A DNA stretch of 64,000 bases from a virus. The DNA is taken from positions 960 to 64,959 of the IMG/VR virus record IMGVR_UViG_3300048904_000123; one strand, given 5' to 3'. Made by a program: the position numbers and the translations under genes. The notes below the pieces were generated by a model, which made no database searches, was not told the origin of the DNA, and saw only the letters and a list, made by a program, of their open reading frames with translations. Positions 1 through 63,542 of the stretch are shown one piece after another (the first letter of the stretch is position 1; each line of letters opens with the position of its first letter).

Positions 1-63
1 ATTGGGGTCAACGCGACAGGCTTCCATGCGAGGGAAGGCGTCACCCCCCGATAAAAAACGTGG

Positions 64-100
64 CACAGATGAATGGTTGTATTCACCTGTGTGGTATGAT
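64..100 (+). promoter_or_regulatory. Putative early promoter (extended -10 TG-G-TATGAT) overlapped by an 11-6-11 inverted repeat
   Basis: TATGAT at 95-100 with TG at 92-93; CACAGATGAAT (64-74) and ATTCACCTGTG (81-91) are reverse complements with 1 mismatch. Confidence 0.5.
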
Positions 101-319
101 TAGATAACGCAGTCAATGACTGGCATGTGCATTGGCTGCATCGAGTACCAAGCTGGACGTGCAGGGCCGCATTAGCCCACCGTCCCAGGGTGTGGCCTGG
201 CTTTCCCAGTAGGCTACTCGGTGCAGTCAATGGACAGTCCAGCCTGACTGTCCAGCCCGGCATGTACCTGATATGATAGGTGTAGGCCGGGCTGGTCTCT
301 TCGTAGGGACGGTTCAAAG

Positions 320-436
320 ATGGGCAACAACTGGGACGACGGCGAGAAGCCGACGCCACCCTGGGTTGTCTTGGTTGTGGCACTCGTCATCGTGGCGGCA
401 CTGTTCGTCACGTGGTGGATGGGCGGCCATGGCTGA
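320..436 (+). CDS. 38-aa single-pass membrane micropeptide
   Basis: Hand-translated MGNNWDDGEKPTPPWVVLVVALVIVAALFVTWWMGGHG; SD-like TAGGGA upstream; overlaps the next start. Confidence 0.7.
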   Translation: MGNNWDDGEKPTPPWVVLVVALVIVAALFVTWWMGGHG

Positions 437-584
437 GCAGCACGGGAAGGGCGGCACCAACCTGATCTGGTGGGGAGTGATCCTACTTCTCATCGTGTTC
501 TGGGGCGGCGTCTGCCTGGGTCCACCATTCATGCGGCACGCAGTGTTCGCAATCGGTGAGTACCTGCTCAGTCTCGTTAAATAG
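429..584 (+). CDS. 51-aa membrane protein
   Basis: MAEQHGKGGTNLIWWGVILLLIVFWGGVCLG..., the hydrophobic 3' part of ORF 273..584. Confidence 0.7.
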   Translation: MAEQHGKGGTNLIWWGVILLLIVFWGGVCLGPPFMRHAVFAIGEYLLSLVK

Positions 585-621
585 CGGGACAGTACTGGCG
601 GGTACATGAGTAGGAAGGTAG

Positions 622-723
622 ATGGTGGGCAGACACAACCAGAGCAACGGCAGCGGTAAGATGCTGTTGCTCGCAGCAGTCATCGTCGTTGTCGCGATCA
701 TCGTGATCACGGCAGTCTTCTGA
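622..723 (+). CDS. 33-aa single-pass membrane micropeptide
   Basis: MVGRHNQSNGSGKMLLLAAVIVVVAIIVITAVF; SD AGGAAGG; TGATG coupling to next gene. Confidence 0.75.
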   Translation: MVGRHNQSNGSGKMLLLAAVIVVVAIIVITAVF

Positions 724-836
724 TGGCTAGCAAGTACGGTGGCGACCCGGACAAAGAACTGCTGGGCGGCTGCCTCATGACAGTGTGTGCGTTGCTGATC
801 TTCGCGATCATCCTGATCAGCTACGTACTTCATTAG
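723..836 (+). CDS. 37-aa single-pass membrane micropeptide
   Basis: MASKYGGDPDKELLGGCLMTVCALLIFAIILISYVLH; start overlaps previous stop. Confidence 0.75.
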   Translation: MASKYGGDPDKELLGGCLMTVCALLIFAIILISYVLH

Positions 837-854
837 GGATCAGAAGGGAGTTAA

Positions 855-1121
855 GTGCTGAACTATCTCGCAACCCTGCACTACCGTGCGGGGTTGCCCG
901 AGATCCCCAAGCCCACCCCGCCCGACTCGAAGACCATCGTCCACAAGGGCAACGACCTGGGTGACTGGATCGCCCATCGGAGCAACTCCTTCTGGACGAT
1001 CGTGGTCATCATCGTGGCTGCGCTGGTCGTCACGGCCGCACTCAAGAGGCCGTTCGTCAAGGGCATCGCGATCGGGGCAATCATCCTGGCCATCATGCTG
1101 GCCGTGGTGATGAACAAGTAA
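855..1121 (+). CDS. 88-aa two-TM membrane protein
   Basis: SD AAGGGAG before GTG; two hydrophobic runs (FWTIVVIIVAALVV; IAIGAIILAIMLAVV). Confidence 0.75.
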   Translation: MLNYLATLHYRAGLPEIPKPTPPDSKTIVHKGNDLGDWIAHRSNSFWTIVVIIVAALVVTAALKRPFVKGIAIGAIILAIMLAVVMNK

Positions 1122-1173
1122 GGCACGTTCCATGTAACACCTCGGATCCAAGGATGGACGGAGAGGAGGTAAC

Positions 1174-1260
1174 ATGAAGAACGCAAGCGCCGCCGTGATC
1201 GGCATCGTGATCGCTCTGGTCTTGGTGCTCGGCATCAAGTACGGATTCAACCTGAGCTAG
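1174..1260 (+). CDS. 28-aa membrane micropeptide
   Basis: MKNASAAVIGIVIALVLVLGIKYGFNLS; strong SD AGGAGG. Confidence 0.75.
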   Translation: MKNASAAVIGIVIALVLVLGIKYGFNLS

Positions 1261-1272
1261 GAGATCTGCCGC

Positions 1273-1398
1273 ATGGGCGTGCACAATCGACGCAAGACCG
1301 GACGAGGTATGTGGTCCGGCGGGGGCTTCTGGTTCCTGCTGATCGCGTTCATCGTGTTCGGGTACATCGCACTTCGCATCGTGCTGGCGATGCACTGA
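1273..1398 (+). CDS. 41-aa membrane micropeptide
   Basis: MGVHNRRKTGRGMWSGGGFWFLLIAFIVFGYIALRIVLAMH; TGATG coupling. Confidence 0.7.
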   Translation: MGVHNRRKTGRGMWSGGGFWFLLIAFIVFGYIALRIVLAMH

Positions 1399-1562
1399 TG
1401 ACGTTCTCGGTATACACCGCAGGACTCGTCATGCTCGTGGTCGGCGTGTTCGGAGCTTGGTACAACAAGGTGAAGAACAGGCCGGGCAACACTGCAGTAT
1501 TCGTGGTGATGATTCTCCTCGGCATCATCATGCTCACGCTCAGTTCACTGGCGCTGATGTGA
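1398..1562 (+). CDS. 54-aa two-TM membrane protein
   Basis: MTFSVYTAGLVMLVVGVFGAW...FVVMILLGIIMLTLSSLALM; coupled start. Confidence 0.75.
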   Translation: MTFSVYTAGLVMLVVGVFGAWYNKVKNRPGNTAVFVVMILLGIIMLTLSSLALM

Positions 1563-1744
1563 GGCACAACTACAACCTCGCCCTAGTGGCGGGCATCCTG
1601 TGTGCGCTGTTCGGCGTACGCATCATCTGGTCGCAGGTCAAGGCGGCAAATCGTGGTCAGTATCTAGGTCTGCCTATTCTTCTGATGGGCTGGATGCTGA
1701 TCACGATCGGCGCAGTAACTGCAATCTGGGCTGTCTATCCCTAA
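1559..1744 (+). CDS. 61-aa two-TM membrane protein
   Basis: GTG overlapping previous TGA; ...LALVAGILCALFGVRII...LPILLMGWMLITIGAVTAIWAVYP. Confidence 0.7.
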   Translation: MRHNYNLALVAGILCALFGVRIIWSQVKAANRGQYLGLPILLMGWMLITIGAVTAIWAVYP

Positions 1745-1839
1745 CTAGACTGGTCCGGCGATGCGCTCACAGATCGGTCGCCGGATACGCAACACTGTTG
1801 TTGTGGTTATCCCAGCTCATGGAGGATATGGGGTAGGGC

Positions 1840-2151
1840 ATGGCAGAGCAGAAGATGCTGAAGCCCGCTGTCACGGTGACGGCAGGCGACAAGGTGATCG
1901 GCATGGCTGTCAAGATGGAGGCCAAGCCGGGCACGAAGACTCCCAACGCAGGTGGTTGGAATCCAACGATCATGCTGTGTGGTGATGCGCCGAACGACAC
2001 GCTCACCCTCGACCTGACACTACAGGCGACAGCACTGGCGGTCCAGGCGGGATGGGTGCTCGGCACCTACCTCGGCCGAGAGAACATGGCGGGCCGACCC
2101 GGCCTGACGTGCACCTACTACCACGTGTGGATGGCAGTCATCTCCCTGTAA
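1840..2151 (+). CDS. Hypothetical protein
   Basis: ORF with good codon bias and SD-like GGGGTAGGG. Confidence 0.65.
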   Translation: MAEQKMLKPAVTVTAGDKVIGMAVKMEAKPGTKTPNAGGWNPTIMLCGDAPNDTLTLDLTLQATALAVQAGWVLGTYLGRENMAGRPGLTCTYYHVWMAVISL

Positions 2152-2228
2152 CGGGAGGGCCCACCAGGTCTAGCTCGGTGTAGCGCTGGTGGGTACGCAA
2201 GTAATACTGGGACATGCAAGGGGAACAC

Positions 2229-2615
2229 ATGAAGACATGGAAGGCGGCCACGCTGATAGCCGGTATGGTTAGCGCAGCTGGGCTCGGCATCATTGCCGTC
2301 GGCCAGCTCACCAAGTACGACGGCTATCAGAGCGCCATCGATACCTGCAAGGTTGGGTCGGGAGCGGAAGTCGGAGACGACGGGCAGACGCTGACCCTCA
2401 ACAAGATCAGTCTGTCCGGGCCGGGCTCGATGTCAGCTTCCGACGCGGCCTGCGTCCTCAAGGAGTTGCACATCTCCAGTGCGGCACTGAATCGCATGGG
2501 ACAGACGAACGCGCTGGCCGGTGTACAGTCGGCCGACTGGGACGGCAACCATGCGACTTGGACGTACAGTCCCGACGACGGACTCAACCTGGTTATATCG
2601 AGGACGCACGGATGA
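2229..2615 (+). CDS. Membrane-anchored or exported protein
   Basis: N-terminal basic then hydrophobic segment; C-terminal ...ATWTYSPDDGLNL resembles a common actinobacterial exported protein family (from memory). Confidence 0.65.
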   Translation: MKTWKAATLIAGMVSAAGLGIIAVGQLTKYDGYQSAIDTCKVGSGAEVGDDGQTLTLNKISLSGPGSMSASDAACVLKELHISSAALNRMGQTNALAGVQSADWDGNHATWTYSPDDGLNLVISRTHG

Positions 2616-3151
2616 CGCCCGTCCGGAAGTACCTGTCCCGCGTGGATGAGGCCGGACGGCTGGTGATCTTCAGGTCCGATGGCCAGCCCATCACCATGCA
2701 CGAAAGGGAATGGTTCGCTGATCTCGTGACGCGTCAGTTGCGCACGGATGCGATGATGACTCGCAAGGGTTACCTTCCCCTCGGCGATGTGATGGAGGAG
2801 AACGGGATCACCGCCGTCAAACACAGGCGGTCGGGTGAGCGCGTTCCTGTCCATCCCCTCATCCACGAGTTGAAGCGTATGCTCGGCGTGCGCAAGTGGA
2901 ACCTTGCCACCACGAGCGAGGCGATCGGCCTGCGCAAAACGGCGTTGTCCGAGTGGATGCGAGGCATGATGGACCCGACCATGCGCAACGTAGCCGGGGC
3001 CTTCGGTGCGATGGGTTACAGGTTGGTGCCGGTGCCCATCACCGACGAGCACGAGATCCGACAGGTGATCGACGCCGCCTCAGCCAAGATGCTGCAAGAG
3101 ATCCACGGCATCGGCATGGAGGACTACACCCTGACGGGCGACGATCACTGA
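2612..3151 (+). CDS. XRE/Cro-C1-type HTH DNA-binding protein
   Basis: LKRMLGVRKWNLATTSEAIGLRKTALSEWMRGMMDPTMRNVAGAFGAMG fits the XRE HTH pattern; ATGA overlap. Confidence 0.65.
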   Translation: MTPVRKYLSRVDEAGRLVIFRSDGQPITMHEREWFADLVTRQLRTDAMMTRKGYLPLGDVMEENGITAVKHRRSGERVPVHPLIHELKRMLGVRKWNLATTSEAIGLRKTALSEWMRGMMDPTMRNVAGAFGAMGYRLVPVPITDEHEIRQVIDAASAKMLQEIHGIGMEDYTLTGDDH

Positions 3152-7188: not shown

Positions 7189-7347
7189 ATGAACGCGGAC
7201 CTCGTATATGGTACGATCGTGTACCTGTTGCTGGCTATCCTGATCGCCAACGTCTGCAAGATGATGGGCGTCAAGGGTTACCTGCTCGTCGGCGTGGTCG
7301 CGGCGCTGGTTCCAGCAATGATCTGCTACACACTGATCGCCCACTAA
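7189..7347 (+). CDS. 52-aa two-TM membrane protein
   Basis: Hand-translated MNADLVYGTIVYLLLAILIANVCKMMGVKGYLLVGVVAALVPAMICYTLIAH. Confidence 0.7.
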   Translation: MNADLVYGTIVYLLLAILIANVCKMMGVKGYLLVGVVAALVPAMICYTLIAH

Positions 7348-10162: not shown

Positions 10163-10549
10163 GTGGATATCAAGATGAGTGACCTGCCCAAACTGGTAGG
10201 TACACGGGTCGTGGTGGAGGTCAGTGCTGGCGGTGATAGCTGGACTCACGAAGGTGAGGTTATCGCCGCCAAGGCTACGGACCTGGCAATCAAGACCAAG
10301 ACCGACACGGTGATCATCGACATGAACTTTGTCGATGACATCAGGCCGGCTGATCCCATCGTGAAAGTAGTTCGTCGCAAGGTTCGGCCCGTCGTGCTGG
10401 CCCAGGTTAAGCAGCATCTCCTGGACCGGCACGGCTACCCGTGGGATCTAGTTCGAGCGGCAACGCCGAGCCTAGCCATGCAGATGCATGACAACATCAA
10501 CCATGACCAGCTCGGTCACCGTCATCGCGAGGACGCGAAGGAGGACTGA
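10163..10549 (+). CDS. Hypothetical protein with His-rich C-terminal motif
   Basis: SD AGGAG; KQHLLDRHG...MHDNINHDQLGHRH. Confidence 0.65.
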   Translation: MDIKMSDLPKLVGTRVVVEVSAGGDSWTHEGEVIAAKATDLAIKTKTDTVIIDMNFVDDIRPADPIVKVVRRKVRPVVLAQVKQHLLDRHGYPWDLVRAATPSLAMQMHDNINHDQLGHRHREDAKED

Positions 10550-13986: not shown

Positions 13987-14166
13987 ATGGCAGGCATTCG
14001 CTGGCGGCTTCTGGCCAACGTCTTGTTGTTCATCGGGGTGCTGATGATCTTCATCATCGCGGAGACTGGCGTCACCAAGACGGCGCTTGTTATCTGCGCC
14101 GGGTCCTGGGCCGTCGGCCTGCTCATGCATCTGATTGGGCCGGGCAAGGAGGACAAGGGGCGATGA
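13987..14166 (+). CDS. 59-aa two-TM membrane protein
   Basis: Hand-translated MAGIRWRLLANVLLFIGVLMIFIIA...VICAGSWAVGLLMHLIG. Confidence 0.7.
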   Translation: MAGIRWRLLANVLLFIGVLMIFIIAETGVTKTALVICAGSWAVGLLMHLIGPGKEDKGR

Positions 14167-14249
14167 GGAACGGCTACACTTTCGCATGGTCCCTGTTCGG
14201 GGTGTTCGTTCTGCTGAACATCATCATCATCGCTTTGGCGGTGCGATGA
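14163..14249 (+). CDS. 28-aa membrane micropeptide
   Basis: MRNGYTFAWSLFGVFVLLNIIIIALAVR; ATGA overlaps at both ends. Confidence 0.7.
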   Translation: MRNGYTFAWSLFGVFVLLNIIIIALAVR

Positions 14250-14329
14250 GACTCCGACACGTTCTACTTCTGCTGTTCGGCGTGCTGTGTATCATCGACG
14301 GCCTGCTGTGCATCTACTGGTACGGGTGA
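14246..14329 (+). CDS. 27-aa membrane micropeptide
   Basis: MRLRHVLLLLFGVLCIIDGLLCIYWYG; ATGA overlap. Confidence 0.7.
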   Translation: MRLRHVLLLLFGVLCIIDGLLCIYWYG

Positions 14330-14335
14330 GGTGAG

Positions 14336-14428
14336 ATGAAGAATCAGACAGTCTGGATCGGTCTTGCCGTGATACTCGCAGTGCAGATTCTTGCTGACAC
14401 CATCGTGATCTGGCTGGGCTGGCGATGA
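14336..14428 (+). CDS. 30-aa membrane micropeptide
   Basis: MKNQTVWIGLAVILAVQILADTIVIWLGWR; SD GAGGTG; ATGA overlap with next gene. Confidence 0.7.
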   Translation: MKNQTVWIGLAVILAVQILADTIVIWLGWR

Positions 14429-25938: not shown

Positions 25939-26292
25939 TTACCCCTGCACGTCTACCTTGTCGCCAGCCTTCAGCATCTTGCGGCGCAAGAGCTGGACAC
26001 GAATCAGGATGAGGACCCGCCACGTAAGGACGATAGCGAGCAAGGGAAAGCCTATACCTCGAACCCATTCTCGCCCGGGGTACTGACCGAAGATCAGGGT
26101 AGCCGACCCGTGGTCGAGCAGCAACGCCACCACGACCATGAACGAGAAGATGTGCCAACCTGCTTCGGAGCGGTAGAACGGTGCGAGCAAGGGGTACAGC
26201 ACGATGAAGACTGTGGCTACAATGGCAGCGATGAAGAAGCTAGCCGAACCTATAGCGCCCAGAACTCCCGTGCCAAAAACACTCGCACCCAT
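25939..26292 (-). CDS. Lysis-cassette membrane protein (3 TM)
   Basis: Three hydrophobic helices, basic C-terminus, last gene of the late operon. Confidence 0.7.
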   Translation of the reverse strand: MGASVFGTGVLGAIGSASFFIAAIVATVFIVLYPLLAPFYRSEAGWHIFSFMVVVALLLDHGSATLIFGQYPGREWVRGIGFPLLAIVLTWRVLILIRVQLLRRKMLKAGDKVDVQG

Positions 26293-26519
26293 TACCCACC
26301 TTCCATTCCATCGTTCCAGATCTCCTGGAAGTGGTTCTCTTGTCGGATCTGCTTCAGCGTGTTAGCTATCAGAGATCCATGCTGCTTCTGCACTCGTACG
26401 TGGCCTAGTGCATTCTTAGCTTCAGCCAGTGCTTCGGCAGCCTCGTCTATTTTCTGTGACTCTACTATCGGGTCAGACGAGGTTGCTGTCGAATCGCGCC
26501 TTAAGAAAAAGCGCATCAT
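26292..26519 (-). CDS. Small lysis-cassette helical protein
   Basis: Coupled at both ends. Confidence 0.65.
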   Translation of the reverse strand: MMRFFLRRDSTATSSDPIVESQKIDEAAEALAEAKNALGHVRVQKQHGSLIANTLKQIRQENHFQEIWNDGMEGG

Positions 26520-26839
26520 GAACCACCTCGCCGCGATTGCCCCCGCGGAACAGAGGAGAGCAGCTTGATTAGGGTTCTACCCTGTTCCAACTGCTCCTCC
26601 CGATTCTCTACCGCTTCTTGTGCCGTGAGCTGCCATGTCTGCGAAGCCGTCTGCCAAGTGTCGGCACGTTTCTCCGCTTTGTCAATCTGATCCGTGAGGA
26701 TCTTTATCTCGCGCTCATGACTCTTCCTCGGCACCAATCTGCCAGACACGAGCGCGAGATAAACAATCGCTACCACGAGGATGAGCAGGCCCCACGGTCC
26801 AAGGTCGGTCAAATCCTTTGGAGATAGACCGTCGAGCAC
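26516..26839 (-). CDS. Holin-like single-TM plus coiled-coil protein
   Basis: GPWGLLILVVAIVYLALVSGRLVP followed by a coiled coil; directly after the endolysin. Confidence 0.6.
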   Translation of the reverse strand: MLDGLSPKDLTDLGPWGLLILVVAIVYLALVSGRLVPRKSHEREIKILTDQIDKAEKRADTWQTASQTWQLTAQEAVENREEQLEQGRTLIKLLSSVPRGQSRRGGS

Positions 26840-26862
26840 TGCTCCCCCTGGTTGTCGAACAG

Positions 26863-27975
26863 CTATGCGGTCGGCGCAGCCGGAGTCTGCGTGCGATCGA
26901 GGCGACCCCCGAGGGCGTCAACAACACCCTCGGCCAGGTCGGCCGGGATGGCGCTGGCGATTGCCGCCGGAGTCAGTCCCGCCGCGACGATTGCCTGCCC
27001 GAGAACGTCCGTGGTGAGGCCGGCGAGAATCCCGTCGACGATCTCCTTCGGGTCCACGTCGCCCTTGCTGGCGAGGGCCGCGATGGTCTTGCTCTGGGCC
27101 GCGACCGCCGACTGAAGTGCTGTCAGCGAGTTGTTCATGTTCTTGATGAACGTCTTCGGCGCGAGGTAGGCGTTCGGAGAACCGTCCGCGTTCTTGGAGC
27201 CGGCCGGGGCCTCGATAATGCCGTCGGTGTTCCAGTTCGCCTTGGCGATGTCTCGCAGGTTTGCGGCTGTCAGATCCATATCTTCCTCCGTGTCGGGTGC
27301 AGCGGAGCTGCTCCACCCAGGCGCAACGAGCGCCGTCAGCTGCGCGAGCGTACCCTTGAAGGCGTTCGCGTCGCTGGTCGTCTGACCAGCGATCTTGGAT
27401 GAACTGGTGAACTGCAGGATGGCGGGCGTCTGTCCGCTGTATGCGTCCCACTTGGACGACGAGTCGCCCGGGTACAGCTTAGATGCTGCGCCATCGCCGG
27501 ACACGTACGCGCTCGCCCACAGCGGGTATCCCAGACCAGACAGGCTGTTCTGGTAAACCCAGCGGGGCGCGTACACGATCGGCCGAAGTTTGGGTGCACG
27601 CTTGCGAAGCTGATCGCAGAAGGCTTTGATGTCAGCCTTGCCGGGTACCGTGGCCGAGTTGTTGTTCCACTTTTCGCAGTCGACCTGCAGGATGAACGGC
27701 GTGTCGCCCCACCCCTTGCAGATGGCGTCGAGCCGATCACAGAACGCGTTGGCTCGAGCGACCGGGTTGCCCGGGTACAGGACCCAGTATGCGCCCAGCA
27801 GGAGCTTGTCGCGGTGGCCCTTGAACTCGTTCCACCACGCGTCGAGTTCTGCGTCGTTGCCGTCGCCGCCCGCCTTGTGCGTCACGAAGGAAAAGCCCTC
27901 CGCGATCACCTTCTCGGCGGTGTCCGACTTGACATCGTCGTAGTGAGACATGTCCCAGCCGTAGATGGTGGTCAC
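26863..27975 (-). CDS. Endolysin, GH25-type muramidase
   Basis: GWDMSHY, LLGAYW, LQVDCE, PIVY, YPLWASAY, ILQFT, DANAF. Confidence 0.85.
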   Translation of the reverse strand: MTTIYGWDMSHYDDVKSDTAEKVIAEGFSFVTHKAGGDGNDAELDAWWNEFKGHRDKLLLGAYWVLYPGNPVARANAFCDRLDAICKGWGDTPFILQVDCEKWNNNSATVPGKADIKAFCDQLRKRAPKLRPIVYAPRWVYQNSLSGLGYPLWASAYVSGDGAASKLYPGDSSSKWDAYSGQTPAILQFTSSSKIAGQTTSDANAFKGTLAQLTALVAPGWSSSAAPDTEEDMDLTAANLRDIAKANWNTDGIIEAPAGSKNADGSPNAYLAPKTFIKNMNNSLTALQSAVAAQSKTIAALASKGDVDPKEIVDGILAGLTTDVLGQAIVAAGLTPAAIASAIPADLAEGVVDALGGRLDRTQTPAAPTA

Positions 27976-28307
27976 GCCGGGCCACCCTTGGCTGCGTCTT
28001 CGATGGTGGCAGCAGGAGTCGAATCGAGGACGACGGCGTCGCCGGACTTGACAGTGCCGGGGTCGTTGATCGGGTCGGGAACGACAACCGCGACCTTGGC
28101 GTTGGCCGTGACGCTACCGCGAGTCCAGAGGGCCTGGATGACGGGGAGGATCACGACGAGTACTGCGATGATGCTGTCGGGGATGTTCGGTGCAATCTTG
28201 ATTCCGATCGCTGCAAGCAGAGTCACCACTGCAAGCAGGATGCCCCGCAACGTTGCGGGCTCAAGGTTCACCAACTTCCACCAGACGTTGTCCCTCGGAT
28301 CTTTCAT
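27972..28307 (-). CDS. Holin
   Basis: Two TM helices (LRGILLAVVTLLAAIGI; IIAVLVVILPVIQALW); coupled to the endolysin; SD fits ATG 28307. Confidence 0.7.
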   Translation of the reverse strand: MKDPRDNVWWKLVNLEPATLRGILLAVVTLLAAIGIKIAPNIPDSIIAVLVVILPVIQALWTRGSVTANAKVAVVVPDPINDPGTVKSGDAVVLDSTPAATIEDAAKGGPA

Positions 28308-53425: not shown

Positions 53426-55286
53426 AAATTCCCCCACCTGGTTGCAGACCAGATTGGCCCGACAGTGACACAGGCGCAAGGGAAGGGATCTGCGGAGAAG
53501 TCGGAGAACCGTTCCGTTGTTTCTGCTGTACCGTAGGATCGTACTCGTCTGTCCGGTTAGTCAAATCGCCTCTCGGCGTAGGAGCTGAGTTTCGCACACC
53601 CCGGCGGTATTGTCTATCCCCGGCCAGCAACGAACATACGCCAGCCATGGCATCGGCCACGTCCTTACTACCACCTACCGGGTGATCGATCTTCTTTCCG
53701 GTGTCTACGAGTTGCGTCAGTTCTTGGTACGCGATCTCTACCTGCTTAGAATCGCCATGCTTCAGGAGTGTCATGTACTTGGGAAACTCGATCCGCTCTT
53801 CGTAGATCGCATCCCGCAAGTCCTGATAAGGTAGCATGGAACGGTCAACAGATAGATAGTCTGCGTCCAGCCTGCGCTTGTTGAGTTGCTGGATCGTGTC
53901 TGTACTCTGGAATCCGTCCAGCGTTACCTTGCGAATATTGAATCCCAGTTCATCTCTGAGTTGATAAACCGTCTGCCGCACGTCGCCAAGGATGATCTCC
54001 CGTCCAGGCAACGGCTTAATACGCGCGATGAAATCGAAGACGATGACCGGACGTTCCTCTTCATCGACCTCCTTTAGTTCGCGAACGTGCCCCATCGCCA
54101 TACCTAGAGCGTCACCCTCTGCACTGTATGCAATGTCGATGTGCATGACCCGACGCAGTCTGTCGTTAGCCCTGAACCATGGGGCAAACTCCACTCGCTC
54201 CAGGATCGGCATGACTGGCGATGCTTCGATACCAAACCTCGAGTGCCAGCGCTCCGTGGCCGAGTCCACCTTGAATGTCATCCCGATGAAAGGGTTGCCG
54301 ACTAGCGGCGGAATCCCTGCCAAGTCCTTCAGCGCCTTGTCGGGATCGTTCATGAACTGCTTCTTGTAGAGGTTGGGAATCTCCATAAAGTCAGAGTTCA
54401 CGACCACAGAAGCTATGAGGCTAGAGACTTCCATCTTGCGACGAACATCGAACCAGAAGCTGTCGCGAGTTCCATCAGGCTTAAGGTACTTGTCCCAACC
54501 AAAGGATTCCCAGATCGTCATGCGACTGGTGTATGCATCCTCGTCCTGCTGAAAGTCTGCATACTTCTGCGACGCGAACCCGGTAGACTTCTTCATCTGT
54601 CCAATCAAGATAAGCAGACCACGATCTCCGAAACGCGACGTGATGCGGTTCGAGATCGTGTTATAGCCGTTAAGAGCATAGTCCGCTTTGGGGGTAACGC
54701 GATGCGAGTCCATCTCATCGAGAACGCCGCCGAGGATGTTGTATCCTTCGAAGGTTGTCTCCGAAGAGTCGCCAGGTACAATCCAGATATCCTTCGCGGG
54801 CCAACGCATCTGATTCTTAAAGGACGGATCTTGCGGCCACTTCTTGAACCAAGGAGAGTGCTTGATTCGAGCCACAACATCGGCGAAGATGACTTCACGA
54901 GCTTGATCCTCTGAGGTAGACATCATCATGAAGGCGATGCGAGAACCCGGCATCAGGTTAAAAAACTTCTGCGGGTCCTTCAAGCACAGCACCCAATGAA
55001 CCATGTACGGAAGAACGATGCTTGCAAACGTCGTCTTACCGATACCGATCGCGCCAGTCATCATGGCCTCTTTGAACTTGGCCAGGCTGTACGGCTGAGA
55101 CTCCTCGCCGAAGATATCAACCAGAACTGTACGCAGGCCGGGCCGGACATTAGCCTCGATGTTAAGGTAGCTATCACTCAAGAACTCGACAATGCTGGCC
55201 GGCCGCTCTTCGAAATCAGGGTTGTTCTTAAGCCAATCCAGTTCTCGTAGACTAGCTTTGAATTGCTCGTCGGTCAGGTTGCTCAT
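53394..55286 (-). CDS. terL: Terminase large subunit
   Basis: GAIGIGKT, LDEMD, HIDIA...DALG, KDVADA. Confidence 0.9.
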   Translation of the reverse strand: MSNLTDEQFKASLRELDWLKNNPDFEERPASIVEFLSDSYLNIEANVRPGLRTVLVDIFGEESQPYSLAKFKEAMMTGAIGIGKTTFASIVLPYMVHWVLCLKDPQKFFNLMPGSRIAFMMMSTSEDQAREVIFADVVARIKHSPWFKKWPQDPSFKNQMRWPAKDIWIVPGDSSETTFEGYNILGGVLDEMDSHRVTPKADYALNGYNTISNRITSRFGDRGLLILIGQMKKSTGFASQKYADFQQDEDAYTSRMTIWESFGWDKYLKPDGTRDSFWFDVRRKMEVSSLIASVVVNSDFMEIPNLYKKQFMNDPDKALKDLAGIPPLVGNPFIGMTFKVDSATERWHSRFGIEASPVMPILERVEFAPWFRANDRLRRVMHIDIAYSAEGDALGMAMGHVRELKEVDEEERPVIVFDFIARIKPLPGREIILGDVRQTVYQLRDELGFNIRKVTLDGFQSTDTIQQLNKRRLDADYLSVDRSMLPYQDLRDAIYEERIEFPKYMTLLKHGDSKQVEIAYQELTQLVDTGKKIDHPVGGSKDVADAMAGVCSLLAGDRQYRRGVRNSAPTPRGDLTNRTDEYDPTVQQKQRNGSPTSPQIPSLAPVSLSGQSGLQPGGGIYDGLDVQRRR

Positions 55287-56773
55287 GAAGCAGATCCCTC
55301 GATCGTCTTCGCAGAGCTGATCTCGTGGTTTACCTTTGCGGTGCTGATTGCCTGAGCCATAGGCACGTTGGCCATGTTCCGAAGAACACCCTTGACCATG
55401 GAGCTATCAATGTCCTCACGCTTCACGCCTGCGGCTTCCAGCTCAGCCACGACCGTAGCCATTAGCTGCTTCGGGTCAGACCCAGAGATGCCTACGTTCG
55501 CAGATCCGCCAGCTCCGACGCCGACATTCACCTGCACCTTTGGGCCACCAGCCTTGCTCGGATCGATCAGCTTGACCAGCTTGGTCCCCTGGTCGAACAC
55601 GACCTTACTGAGCTTGGTAACCTCAGGGTCCAGCTCGCCGGATGCATCCTCGGCCGCGATGGCGTCCTCGAGTCGCTCGGCGTTCCGCTGAAGTAGTTTA
55701 CTCAGCCCACCCATGATCACGTCGGCGTTACGAGAGCCGAACGCATCCGCTAGTGCCACGGCGTCAGATCCCTTCACTGTGCAAACGCTACCCTCTCGGT
55801 AGAGTGTGCAGGCGTTTTGAAGAATGCAAGTGTCGCAGGTGAATCGATCGTACTCATCTGCTTTCATTCCGATGTTGCGCATTACTCTGCGACGTGCGGC
55901 CGGAAGAACAAAATCCCTGTCGCTAACTTCCGTGAACACGTCCGGCATAAAGACTGTATTGGGTCCGCCACGTCCCGACGGACTTCTTGTTATGAACGGT
56001 GTTACAGACTGAAAGTTCTTTCGAGCCCAGTCAGCGGAGCGAAGACACATCCTGATCCTGTCTTCGAAGTCCTGGATCTCCCACTGGGCCATACCCACCA
56101 GCTCGAACCAGTCCTCATAACGCGGATCGTGGATGTACTCGGCGCGCAATTGCTTTCCGGAAGGAAGTGCAACTCTATTTGCTGAAGCTCCAGTGCCGGT
56201 TAGTTCATGCGGGCGGTAGTCCACTCCCCAGAATCCAAAGCCAAAGATATCACTGAAGCTATCGCCGCCGGAGACAAACAGCTGAACTTCAGGATACTTA
56301 AGCTGTACCTCACGCAACTGGAGATAAAACTCTTTGCGCTCCCATCCACCGGGAGGAAGTCTGTGAATCACCACTCGGTGCGCTTGTCCATACACAGGAC
56401 GCATCTGCACGTTTACGGACTGATCGGTGCAAATCATGAGATCGGAGCCGACGCAGTTCTGCATCAACCACTCGAGCGAGTCCCATCCCTCGTCGGGCGC
56501 CCAGGTGGGATAAACCGCTTCCGGCTTCTCGTATCCCTTGAATGTGTTGTACTCCGCCGCCCCAGCGTGATCGATCATCATTACCCTGACGGGCCCGTAT
56601 CCAGCAGTATGCGTACGCACCCAGCTGAACATCTCCCTTGCCGTTGACAGTAGATCTGCCACACTCCAGGTGAATTTCCTGAAGCCTTCGTCAAGCGCGA
56701 CATCGATGTATTTCTGAGACTGCATAAGCCATAGGTCAACCATAGCAACGACCCTTATCTGGTTATGTGTCAA
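55283..56773 (-). CDS. Multi-domain protein in the small-terminase position (alpha/beta N-domain, Cys4 cluster, helical C-terminus)
   Basis: ATGA-coupled to terL; CDTC-x4-C-x7-C; function uncertain. Confidence 0.6.
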   Translation of the reverse strand: MTHNQIRVVAMVDLWLMQSQKYIDVALDEGFRKFTWSVADLLSTAREMFSWVRTHTAGYGPVRVMMIDHAGAAEYNTFKGYEKPEAVYPTWAPDEGWDSLEWLMQNCVGSDLMICTDQSVNVQMRPVYGQAHRVVIHRLPPGGWERKEFYLQLREVQLKYPEVQLFVSGGDSFSDIFGFGFWGVDYRPHELTGTGASANRVALPSGKQLRAEYIHDPRYEDWFELVGMAQWEIQDFEDRIRMCLRSADWARKNFQSVTPFITRSPSGRGGPNTVFMPDVFTEVSDRDFVLPAARRRVMRNIGMKADEYDRFTCDTCILQNACTLYREGSVCTVKGSDAVALADAFGSRNADVIMGGLSKLLQRNAERLEDAIAAEDASGELDPEVTKLSKVVFDQGTKLVKLIDPSKAGGPKVQVNVGVGAGGSANVGISGSDPKQLMATVVAELEAAGVKREDIDSSMVKGVLRNMANVPMAQAISTAKVNHEISSAKTIEGSAS

Positions 56774-60509: not shown

Positions 60510-60902
60510 CTACTTGGGGAGATCGTAGTCCGGACGCTCGTAGTCGCCGTCCGGGTGCTCCGGCGCGAGGTCCGGCACGTCCAGCAAAACTGGCGATTCC
60601 GGCTCCTCGTCGATAGCCTTCTCGACCTCGTGAACGAACTCGTCCTCGCTGGCGTCTTCGGGCCGACGATTCGGCTCGGGCCCGATGAGCGGAGCCGACT
60701 CGGTCACGACCATGCGCTTCGGTGTCGATTGCTCGATCAACCGGAGGCTGGTTGCGTGTGCCCGCGCCAGCGACCACCCGACCCACTGGGCCTGATCGGT
60801 GCTGGGGCACGTCGCCTGCAGTTCCTTGTTGCCCGCCCAGTCCTCAGTGAACACGGAGAACTGGTCCACGACGATGACGCTGATCGGTGTTTGCGCTGTC
60901 AT
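60510..60902 (-). CDS. Hypothetical protein with acidic tail
   Basis: TAATG coupling. Confidence 0.65.
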   Translation of the reverse strand: MTAQTPISVIVVDQFSVFTEDWAGNKELQATCPSTDQAQWVGWSLARAHATSLRLIEQSTPKRMVVTESAPLIGPEPNRRPEDASEDEFVHEVEKAIDEEPESPVLLDVPDLAPEHPDGDYERPDYDLPK

Positions 60903-61090
60903 TAGTTGCCCTCCAGCAAGTAAGGAGCACGCCAGTTGGGCGCGGGGATCGTGGTCGGAGTTGTGATCTGTCCAGACTGGCCAACACTCTGGTGGTTGAT
61001 CTTGCTGTACGCGTGGTGACCGAGGAGGATCACCAGCGCCAGAAGAACCATGGCTGCCGCCAGGCCGAACACTCTATCGATTGCTTTCAC
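60902..61090 (-). CDS. 62-aa single-pass membrane protein
   Basis: GTG start; VFGLAAAMVLLALVILLG. Confidence 0.6.
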   Translation of the reverse strand: MKAIDRVFGLAAAMVLLALVILLGHHAYSKINHQSVGQSGQITTPTTIPAPNWRAPYLLEGN

Positions 61091-62586: not shown

Positions 62587-62739
62587 TCACCAGAAGAACA
62601 TCACGTAGATCAGCGCCGCGATCGCACCCAGGCCGATGCCGATCAGGAAGCCGATCTTCAGATCAGATCCATCCTGCTTGACCACACGGTTCCGGCGTCT
62701 CAGCTTCTTGCCGCCCGGTCCGTATACTGCGCCCGGCAT
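62587..62739 (-). CDS. 50-aa membrane micropeptide
   Basis: MPGAVYGPGGKKLRRRNRVVKQDGSDLKIGFLIGIGLGAIAALIYVMFFW; SD GGGGAG. Confidence 0.7.
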   Translation of the reverse strand: MPGAVYGPGGKKLRRRNRVVKQDGSDLKIGFLIGIGLGAIAALIYVMFFW

Positions 62740-62741
62740 GC

Positions 62742-63041
62742 CTACTCCCCCTTGTCGATGAGCTGACTGATGTCGTTGGGAACGCTCGCCTCCCGGTGGA
62801 TAACCTCATCCACGAGCACGGGCGTGAGCATGTACAGGTTCCGCAGAATCCTGTACAGCCCCTGATCGCTCAGCCCAGCAAGGTAGTCCTTCACCACGCC
62901 AAGCTGGTCTTCCTCGATGTAGTCCAGCGCCGTCTCGAGCAGGGTGCTGTCCAGCTCCCCCAGCTGGCCGGCCGCTGCCATCTTCGCCATCATACCCTTA
63001 GCTTCCTCGAAGGGCACGCCGCTTACGATCTGCATTGCCAT
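62742..63041 (-). CDS. Helical hypothetical protein
   Basis: Start MAMQIV after SD AAGGGGGTG. Confidence 0.7.
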   Translation of the reverse strand: MAMQIVSGVPFEEAKGMMAKMAAAGQLGELDSTLLETALDYIEEDQLGVVKDYLAGLSDQGLYRILRNLYMLTPVLVDEVIHREASVPNDISQLIDKGE

Positions 63042-63043
63042 CT

Positions 63044-63136
63044 TTATTTCACCCCCTTGTAAATGCTCACCATGCAGGCGATGAACACTGCCAGTCCGAA
63101 GACCATCAGGAATGCGTACGGGAAGAAGTCCCACAT
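63044..63136 (-). CDS. 30-aa membrane micropeptide
   Basis: MWDFFPYAFLMVFGLAVFIACMVSIYKGVK. Confidence 0.65.
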   Translation of the reverse strand: MWDFFPYAFLMVFGLAVFIACMVSIYKGVK

Positions 63137-63182
63137 CGCTTTCCAGTTGATCCTACTCCTACCCTTAGGCTTCACCTGTGGC

Positions 63183-63290
63183 TCACGAACAGCTACCCTG
63201 GACGCCGCCGGTGACGAACGTCCAGTAGAAAAAGCCCAGGATGAACAGGACGAAGATCAGTAGCGCCAGAAAACCCAGCGTGTTTTTCAT
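63183..63290 (-). CDS. 35-aa membrane micropeptide
   Basis: MKNTLGFLALLIFVLFILGFFYWTFVTGGVQGSCS. Confidence 0.7.
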   Translation of the reverse strand: MKNTLGFLALLIFVLFILGFFYWTFVTGGVQGSCS

Positions 63291-63304
63291 GCCAGTCTAC
63301 CCTG

Positions 63305-63388
63305 TCAGCTCAGCCACACGCACATGGCCACGACAGCGCAGACCAGCAACGCCGTCAGAAACACCGGCGGGTCCACCCACTTGAACAT
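63305..63388 (-). CDS. 27-aa membrane micropeptide
   Basis: MFKWVDPPVFLTALLVCAVVAMCVWLS; SD GAGGGG. Confidence 0.7.
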   Translation of the reverse strand: MFKWVDPPVFLTALLVCAVVAMCVWLS

Positions 63389-63398
63389 CTCTATCCCC

Positions 63399-63542
63399 TC
63401 ACATGAAATAGAAGTAGGCCCCGACGCCCAGCACAAGCAGCAAGATCAGGAACAAGAACGGCCCGCAGCCGAGCCCACCCGACCCACGGCCAACGTCTCC
63501 GTTGTACCAGTTGCCCTCGTGCCACCCAAAGAAGTCACCCAT
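63399..63542 (-). CDS. 47-aa membrane micropeptide
   Basis: MGDFFGWHEG...PFLFLILLLVLGVGAYFYFM; TGATG coupling. Confidence 0.7.
   Translation of the reverse strand: MGDFFGWHEGNWYNGDVGRGSGGLGCGPFLFLILLLVLGVGAYFYFM

Follow-up and report, generated by a model that had tools for sequence, protein, structure and literature searches.

A conserved cassette of nine small predicted inner-membrane protein genes framed by RNA structures in an uncultivated actinobacteriophage lineage

Phage T4 encodes a 9.3-kDa membrane protein, Imm, that binds the tape-measure protein of a second phage and thereby stops translocation of its genome (bioRxiv 10.64898/2026.03.06.709160), and PfsE, a small protein of the Pf phages, inhibits the type IV pilus (PilC), prevents superinfection, and is also reported to inhibit PQS signaling (PMC8764522, PMC10473763). 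Proteins of the AcrZ, MgrB, MgtS, KdpF, and CydX class are at most 50 amino acids (aa) long and consist of little more than a single transmembrane (TM) helix; they frequently go unannotated (PMC12648545). Actinophage lysis cassettes contain runs of one to four genes for small TM proteins with one or two TM helices; in the mycobacteriophage Amelie, in which only a handful of the 77 genes are reported to have TM domains, a 58-aa single-TM protein of the early region is highly toxic to the host (PMC11797047). Here we describe an array of nine consecutive short open reading frames (ORFs), o1 to o9, for predicted membrane proteins in the IMG/VR virus record IMGVR_UViG_3300048904_000123. The DNA analyzed, called the window below, is a stretch of 64,000 nucleotides (nts) corresponding to bases 960 to 64959 of this 73,216-bp record, and the array lies at window positions 320 to 1744.

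T4 Imm (83 aa) and HK97 gp15, both superinfection-exclusion proteins, are, like the predicted products of the array, small phage inner-membrane proteins, and Imm is close in size to o5, but both are single genes of phages with Gram-negative hosts, whereas the array is a nine-gene cassette. No homology to them emerged: searches of Pfam and PHROGs gave no significant match for any of the nine ORFs, and a Foldseek comparison of the o5 model with BFVD gave nothing at an E value of ≤0.001. Still, o5, o8, and o9 (54 to 88 aa, two predicted helices each, in a replication-type operon) fit the format of small exclusion-type inner-membrane proteins encoded outside the late genes, a timing that their position suggests. 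The resemblance to PfsE of the Pseudomonas Pf phages may lie in the mode of action that we propose below for the single-pass members; PfsE, in contrast, is a single gene of a filamentous phage and has no homology to the array. As judged from hydropathy, o1, o3, o4, o6, and o7 (28 to 41 aa, a single hydropathy peak of 2.5 to 3.4) have the AcrZ/MgrB format of at most 50 aa, one TM helix, and a minimal soluble part. Genes of that class, however, are chromosomal, scattered, and individually regulated, whereas here nine phage genes form one framed polycistron. The holin-like TM genes of actinophages stand beside the endolysin gene, whereas the array is 25 kb away from it and on the other strand. 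Single small phage membrane proteins and holin-like TM runs beside actinophage lysins are already known, but we found no description in the literature of a conserved cassette of 8 to 12 membrane microprotein genes that lies within a replication-type operon between conserved RNA structures. The conserved RNA structures that frame the cassette are new here.

Nine small genes and their conservation

The nine genes are real, their order is kept in relatives, and several of them are under purifying selection. A preliminary description, made from the sequence alone, had reported nine consecutive short membrane ORFs at this place, tiling it almost without gaps, most with a Shine-Dalgarno (SD) motif or a coupled start. 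All of this was confirmed once the start of o2 was corrected to ATG 429 (not 430) and that of o9 to GTG 1559 (Table 1). The ORFs, all on the + strand, encode 28 to 88 aa, and coding sequence makes up 91.6% of the stretch. From o1 to o9 the inter-ORF gaps are −8, 37, −1, 18, 52, 12, −1, and −4 nts, the negative values marking the junctions (o1/o2, o3/o4, o7/o8, and o8/o9) at which o2, o4, o8, and o9 overlap the preceding stop. SD motifs precede o3, o5, o6, and o7, and a weaker one precedes o1.

Table 1. Features of the array and its upstream and downstream flanks (window coordinates)
Feature	Position	Strand	Description
Promoter-like stretch	77..105	+	TTGTAT (77-82), 17 nt, TTAGAT (100-105)
Leader hairpin	109..251	+	143 nt; long imperfect hairpin; minimum free energy −80.5 kcal/mol, z −5.0
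Terminator-like hairpin	253..304	+	GC-rich, followed by GUCUCUU; directly before the o1 ribosome-binding site
o1	320..436	+	38 aa; acidic N-tail and one TM helix; best codon frame
o2	429..584	+	51 aa; one TM helix and C-terminal GPPFMR tail; overlaps end of o1 by 8 nt
o3	622..723	+	33 aa; basic N-tail and C-terminal TM helix; AGGAAGG SD
o4	723..836	+	37 aa; one TM helix; one-base overlap of start with o3 stop; best codon frame
o5	855..1121	+	88 aa; GTG start; proline-rich N-tail, helix, TM hairpin
o6	1174..1260	+	28 aa; one TM helix; GAGAGGAGG SD upstream
o7	1273..1398	+	41 aa; basic N-tail (+4) and one TM helix; AGGAG SD; best codon frame
o8	1398..1562	+	54 aa; basic-loop TM hairpin; one-base overlap of start with o7 stop
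o9	1559..1744	+	61 aa; TM hairpin; GTG start overlaps o8 stop by 4 nt; best codon frame
3′ stem-loop	1753..1786	+	10-bp GC-rich stem, loop with CUCACAGA; begins 9 nt after o9 stop

Composition and reading frame agree in pointing to coding function. The GC content of the seven ORFs read in frame is 0.74 to 0.90 at third codon positions versus 0.31 to 0.44 at second positions, and under a codon model trained on the long ORFs of the phage each of the nine ORFs (9/9) scored best of six frames in its own frame. Every ORF has a 19-residue hydropathy maximum of 2.45 to 3.36, with two helices in o5, o8, and o9 and one in each of the others. Stop-to-stop frames with a strong hydrophobic helix numbered 8 on the + strand and 0 on the − strand; 1000 dinucleotide-preserving shuffles gave a mean of 0.006 such frames and a maximum of 1. 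The public gene set calls o5, o7 (P0027), and o9 (P0026). Under the positive-inside rule, the predicted topology has the N terminus inside for o3 and o7 and the basic loop inside for o5, o8, and o9.

The ORFs had also been described as not being obvious repeats of each other, and a segment-shuffle test found no convincing paralogy among the nine. Only the o1-o3 pair stood out, with a z score of 3.8, but a duplication was rejected because the score rests on the likeness of two helices rich in V, L, A, and I. Two alternative starts were likewise discarded. An extension of o8 to GTG 1311 would swallow o7, but o8 homologues align from the Met at 1398; a start of o9 at GTG 1586 was rejected because the two-helix form and the 4-nt overlap are mirrored in a relative (L005, below). 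The match of o8 to Pfam DUF308 (PF03729, a two-TM repeat) scored 16.3 bits, below the cutoff of 25.

The comparisons cover four to five lineages. Contigs L001 and L009 are pieces of the record itself (coordinates on L001 are genome coordinates), L003 to L005, L008, L010, and L011 are metagenomic relatives, and L012 is from an unrelated phage type with an o5 homologue. Syntenic arrays in related phages, which the preliminary description had suggested looking for, were found on the contigs of o5 homologues: collinear arrays of 8 to 12 small hydrophobic ORFs stand at the same place in L003/L004/L008, L005, and L010/L011. At the corresponding place of a Logan contig, known from gene sizes alone, there are small genes that agree with these in size and order. 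Homologues of seven of the nine ORFs (o1 to o6 and o8) were recognized by sequence at collinear positions with tblastn and codon alignments.

ORF o5 has homologues 62 to 69% identical (P0002 to P0004) and, in the more distant L010/L011, homologues of ∼41% identity; o8 has full-length homologues 37 to 41% identical in L005, L003, and L004 and a ratio of nonsynonymous to synonymous substitution rates (dN/dS) of 0.38 to 0.48. ORF o2 is 53% identical over 32 aa to L005:5395-5562 (dN/dS 0.31), and its motif GPP(P)F(M)RE recurs in L010:3702-3800. Homologues of o1 in L005 (5011-5133) and in L003/L008 have in common the pattern W-D/K...P-x-W...W-x-x-G, with the SD and start context conserved; those of o3 are in L005 (50% identical), L003, and L008, and L010:4472-4588 is similar at the N terminus. 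ORF o4 has weak syntenic homologues at L005:5687-5812 and L003:5739-5870. The o6 N terminus, MKN...A-A-x-I-G-I, is common to L005:6290-6370 (59% over 17 aa) and L010:4365-4472. The only match to o7 is a weak one, to an ORF at L005:6386-6532 that is not called in the public gene set (pairwise E value of 0.005). L005, L003, and L010 have two-helix ORFs at the position of o9, the one in L005 again with an overlap of 4 nts, but these are positional analogues only; no sequence homologue of o9 was found, and homologue searches with o7 and o9 returned only the window's own proteins.

The preliminary description had made its case depend on the frames being conserved in relatives, and this they are: the frames are kept, and the dN/dS of o5, 0.23 to 0.32, is comparable to that of the adjacent helix-turn-helix (HTH) gene, 0.21 to 0.35. 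For o1, o3, o4, and o6 the values are 0.45 to 0.87, from short alignments with saturated dS; selection on these four is therefore indicated mainly by the retained frames and hydrophobic character. In the L003/L008 pair, which is 97% identical, the homologues of o1 and o5 and the soluble gene described below together have eight changes, seven of which fall on third codon positions. The o3 homologue (L003:5639-5746 versus L008:1163-1270) has 7 substitutions in 108 nts, and first or second codon positions account for 5 of these. This may reflect diversifying selection in the o3 family, although the numbers are small.

Membership of the arrays varies. In L003 the search for an o2 homologue was negative; L005 and L003/L008 carry extra members of 29 to 31 aa; and the order differs in L010. 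After the o1 homologue, L005 (5135-5398) and L003 (5383-5661) have a gene for a conserved soluble protein of 87 to 92 aa with Cys pairs (C-T-x-C-Y ... W-H), which is absent from the window. Public gene calls missed TM ORFs of 29 aa (L003:5873-5962) and 48 aa (L005:6386-6532) in the related arrays, and the o1 homologue of L003 was probably started at the wrong codon in those calls: TTG 5279, with a GGAAGGG ribosome-binding site, aligns with the ATG of the window.

These data bear on the idea that most of the micro-ORFs are young, weakly selected, or nonfunctional, a nursery of genes between RNA elements in which only o5 and perhaps o8 have a function. The absence of family matches, the orphan status of o7 and o9, the high apparent dN/dS of four members, the mostly nonsynonymous change in the o3 homologue between L003 and L008, and the fast turnover of membership would all be expected under this idea. 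However, all nine ORFs show the codon bias of the phage in their own frame only, they have ribosome-binding sites or coupled starts, and frames and hydrophobicity are retained at the same positions despite saturated synonymous sites. We consider a nursery very unlikely.

ORF o5 appears from the comparisons to be the conserved core member of the cassette. Its proline-rich N-tail is followed by a conserved helix, KGNDLxDW...HR, and by two TM helices that a K-R-P-F-V-K-G loop connects. When 1.84 billion representatives were searched with a profile, 21 clusters matched at an E value of ≤1e-3, 14 of them at ≤1e-10; those whose sources were looked up all came from metagenomes or unnamed assemblies. 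The family, 75 to 100 aa long, has the pattern P-x-P...P-D/N...K-G-x-D...W-L/I-A-x-R helix, TM1, K-R/N-P-F/V-V/I-K/R-G loop, and TM2, and o5 has it throughout; in the alignment the loop Gly is invariant and the prolines are nearly so. An AlphaFold model of o5 (pLDDT of 77.5), with helices at residues 25 to 40, 44 to 62, and 66 to 87, agrees with the family layout. A search of the ESM Atlas with o5 gave a best score of 0.77, below the usable range. The distant o5 homologue in L010 is among eight TM micro-ORFs upstream of a MoxR gene. In L012, a phage of a different type with a dUTPase, the homologue belongs to a coupled trio with just two other TM micro-ORFs, with no MoxR gene nearby; a sister contig of L012 also carries WhiB.

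RNA structures on both sides of the array

Upstream of the array is a long imperfect hairpin, called here the leader hairpin, that is more conserved than any nearby coding sequence. Window positions 100 to 262 are 85 to 90% identical across three lineages in which coding dS is saturated, and between L003 and L008 the hairpin has 1 change in 156 nts versus 3.9% in the noncoding stretch upstream. The reverse strand folds worse than the + strand (−71.6 kcal/mol, z −2.8). The RNAalifold structure has 53 pairs, of which 8 show compensatory changes, and includes several conserved G-U pairs. These features point to an RNA of + sense. A covariance model, R1, built from three sequences found the element in L010/L011 at 51.8 bits, with the + strand always far above the − strand; there the outer stem is retained through changes on both sides, with one noncanonical pair. 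Copies are at L003:5031-5185, L005:4778-4944, L008:555-709, and L010:2788-2990, and the hairpin is single copy in the phage genome. The model gave no match in the stretch of the cultured phage RoyalG that was searched; cultured phage TIN2 was not searched with it. An Rfam scan of L001:600-1400 at an E value of ≤1 found only a tRNA-Ala and an overlapping subthreshold tRNA-like match, leaving the leader hairpin unmatched. An exact 18-mer of the hairpin had four matches in IMG/VR, which we treated as chance: they lie in unrelated low-GC contigs with no flanking similarity.

Just before the leader hairpin is a promoter-like stretch (77-105) that includes an extended −10-like element, TGgTATGAT, at 92 to 100. 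At this position L003, L005, and L008 have TTGACA, 17 nts, and then TTGAAT or TTAGAT. The site is only consensus-like and was not called by a consensus scan; we treat the promoter as putative.

Two further hairpins bracket the array itself. The 73-nt stretch from 250 to 322, containing the terminator-like hairpin, folds at −34.5 kcal/mol (z −4.5), and L005, L003, and L010 have an equivalent strong hairpin and UCUCU-rich tract directly before the first array ORF. Its loop is long, and for this reason it escaped a simple terminator scan. In L003, L005, and L010 a strong hairpin likewise follows the last array ORF; the stems differ, but the loop octamer CUCAC(A/G)GA is common to all. Run on the four 3′ stem-loops, RNAalifold found no common structure, the stems being out of register, although each folds well alone. 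In the 73-kb genome the only octamer in a comparably long (10-bp) stem is the one at 1753 to 1786. With conserved structures on both flanks, the array is a bounded, discrete module.

The hairpins may act in termination, stabilization, processing, or antitermination. The put RNAs of HK022 and the RNase III sites of the T7 early mRNAs occupy comparable positions. A tentative reading, for which we see some but by no means the greater probability, concerns the flanking RNA only: the 143-nt hairpin would help polymerase or the message past the terminator-like hairpins, either as an antiterminator in cis or as a processing and stabilizing element of the RNase III type, and the cassette would be a delayed-early module under the control of this switch. 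The strong conservation, + strand specificity, and covariation of the element are consistent with such a role, as is its place just downstream of the promoter-like site and upstream of two terminator-like hairpins. This position would fit a put-type RNA, which lies just downstream of an early promoter and upstream of terminators, but the promoter and terminators here are only consensus-like, and the element is one long hairpin, unlike the two-stem put RNAs. In L010 a 185-aa gene separates it from the array.

Genomic setting

The array belongs to a + strand block of replication-type genes that runs in the window from 320 to ∼25,900; lysis, tail, and head genes form the − strand block. It had been taken for the first early genes of the phage, an appearance due to where the window starts: + strand genes begin ∼6.6 kb upstream of the array, at about 67.9 kb on the genome. 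The “terminal repeat” of the record is a 127-nt overlap between its two ends, an assembly overlap, so that the linear start of the record is arbitrary (the assembly being circularly permuted). Between the divergent − and + units are 2.5 kb without a called gene (L009:2324-4876, genome 65,324-67,876), where the physical ends of the genome, an origin, or RNA genes may be located. The window has a GC content of 55 to 67%.

The order of elements around the array is tRNA-Ala(UGC), a noncoding stretch, the array, an HTH gene (2612-3151), and then genes for a MoxR ATPase and a CobT-like protein. The tRNA-Ala(UGC) gene (L001:794-867) is ∼190 nts upstream of the leader hairpin, and it is kept upstream of hairpin and array in every lineage (L003:4391-4463, L005:4343-4415, and L010:2460-2533). 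L010 has an additional tRNA-Cys. Before the tRNA-Ala, upstream of the window, L001 has a 41-aa single-helix ORF (290-405, +) and, after it, a small ORF rich in Cys.

The array is not the lysis cassette of this phage, since an endolysin gene with TM neighbors of its own lies ∼25 kb away on the other strand (phrog_3084, E value of 3e-30; 26863-27975, −; cassette 25939-28307). The products could still be remote lysis-timing factors, that is, a holin, an antiholin, or lysis regulators. The two-helix hairpins of o8 and o9 resemble class II holins, and o9 has a subthreshold PHROG holin match (phrog_2359, E value of 0.092); in addition, a 2026 preprint reports that phage D29 has lysis regulators with TM domains whose genes lie at remote sites in its genome (bioRxiv 10.64898/2026.08.27.747656). 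Yet the array is in a replication-type operon far from the endolysin, the lysis cassette already holds three TM proteins, and none of the nine ORFs has a significant holin-family match in PHROG or Pfam, o9 being the only one with any holin match. A role in lysis timing is therefore quite improbable in our judgment.

The nearest cultured phages are Tsukamurella phages TIN2 to TIN4 and Gordonia phages of the genus Montyvirus, with 30 to 36% identity over the CobT-like protein. The Montyvirus RoyalG and the Tinduovirus TIN2 have the homologous MoxR/CobT pair (∼34 to 36% identity) and a long operon of small genes with replication functions, but no strong TM micro-ORF was found in the 8 to 15 kb upstream of their MoxR ATPase genes. 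The array is specific to this uncultivated lineage. There is no ground for the earlier suggestion that the peptides remodel hyphal membranes, because Gordonia and Tsukamurella are the hosts of these nearest cultured relatives and the DNA appears to come from a root metagenome.

Other searches for relatives were negative. Nucleotide searches of the cultured-phage collection gave no match with window positions 1 to 2400 (near) or 300 to 1760 (distant); IMG/VR scans with a 103-aa neighbor, with o5, or with the 496-aa ORF at 55283 to 56773 (a presumed terminase) returned no relatives; and a scan of GTDB genomes with the o5 alignment found no prophage relatives. The full stretch was found in one sequencing run only, a root-metagenome DNA run that may be its source, and no RNA run was listed among the runs containing it.

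Small TM ORFs are frequent elsewhere in this phage and make up about one in five of its genes. The preliminary estimate of about 20 in the window was borne out by a crude gene call, which gave about 21, at the places listed there. Five TM micro-ORFs of 27 to 50 aa form a second cluster at 62587 to 63542 (−), close to where the divergent − strand unit begins. At 13987 to 14428 (+), four coupled small TM ORFs come after a 276-aa gene. The others noted are at 7189 to 7347 (+), at 10549 (weak), and at 60902 to 61072 (−).

Possible functions of the cassette

The preliminary description had proposed a dedicated set of membrane peptides. What stands of this is a discrete, conserved unit: a cassette of an uncultivated soil or root lineage of actinobacteriophages with genes for nine small predicted inner-membrane proteins, six of them single pass (28 to 51 aa) and three helical hairpins (54 to 88 aa). 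As a single machine the set is less convincing, the turnover of its members fitting separate accessory proteins better.

A plausible course of events is as follows. Transcription would start at the sigma-70-like promoter ∼215 nts upstream of the array, and the transcript would pass through the 143-nt leader, the terminator-like hairpin before o1, the array, and the stem-loop after o9, which would make expression of the cassette dependent on how stable the RNA is, on how it is processed, or on read-through of the hairpins. The nine ORFs would be translated as a tightly packed, partly coupled polycistron, early or in the middle of infection together with the downstream replication-type operon, as the position of the array suggests. 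The products would insert into the host cytoplasmic membrane and act mostly one by one, each binding a larger membrane protein or the DNA-delivery apparatus of an incoming phage. Their likeliest activities would be the exclusion of superinfecting phages and the modulation of host envelope or transport proteins, and the set would behave as a swappable pool, not as one obligate machine.

Because members turn over and o5 occurs in another genomic setting, we favor the reading that the nine products are separately acting accessory membrane factors, the likeliest roles being to exclude other phages and to modulate membrane proteins of the host. T4 Imm, PfsE, and the toxic Amelie protein set a precedent for such a mechanism. 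On balance we give this reading an even chance. Several points weigh against it. The TM calls were made by hydropathy only; o7 and o9 lack clear sequence homologues, and o1, o3, o4, and o6 have the elevated dN/dS values given above. The consensus scan called no promoter at 77 to 105, and the terminator-like hairpin before o1 could leave the array poorly transcribed unless it is overridden. Finally, conserved order and translational coupling would also fit a multisubunit assembly.

In such an assembly the nine products would be subunits of one hetero-oligomer made in fixed ratios through translational coupling. Candidates for it are a pore, a channel, and a platform anchoring phage replication or the MoxR/VWA machinery to the membrane. 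The start-stop overlaps at four junctions of the array (o1/o2, o3/o4, o7/o8, and o8/o9) speak for it, and 4-nt overlaps recur in L005, with overlaps also in L003 and L010. Gene order is preserved across lineages, and in five lineages the array is 3 to 4 kb upstream of the MoxR/CobT pair. Membership, however, differs between relatives, the o5 homologue of L012 occurs without the other members and without MoxR nearby, and RoyalG and TIN2 have the MoxR/CobT pair with no such array upstream. A complex prediction for o8 and o9 scored 0.01, which weighs neither for nor against binding. We judge a single assembly to be unlikely.

A bolder version of separate action would link it to the leader RNA. 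Here the leader would license passage of the two terminator-like hairpins and so release 8 to 12 different microproteins as an RNA-switched battery, each disabling a different host membrane machine or DNA-entry channel, with members being swapped as hosts and competitors change. The locus would then be analogous to anti-defense islands as a diversifying countermeasure locus, but aimed at the membrane. We hold this version to be improbable as well.

No part of phage genomes is less well understood than the small membrane proteins, which gene finders frequently pass over. The cassette presents them as a well-delimited unit of nine genes, with ∼1.4 kb of coding sequence, boundaries marked by RNA structures, and natural variants that differ in membership. 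To our knowledge, little has been established about the gating of early expression in this actinophage lineage, and the leader and the bracketing hairpins may reveal how it is done. Should members turn out to exclude phages or to inhibit membrane proteins of the host, they would provide new tools for actinobacterial envelope biology and a new class of genes for competition between phages.

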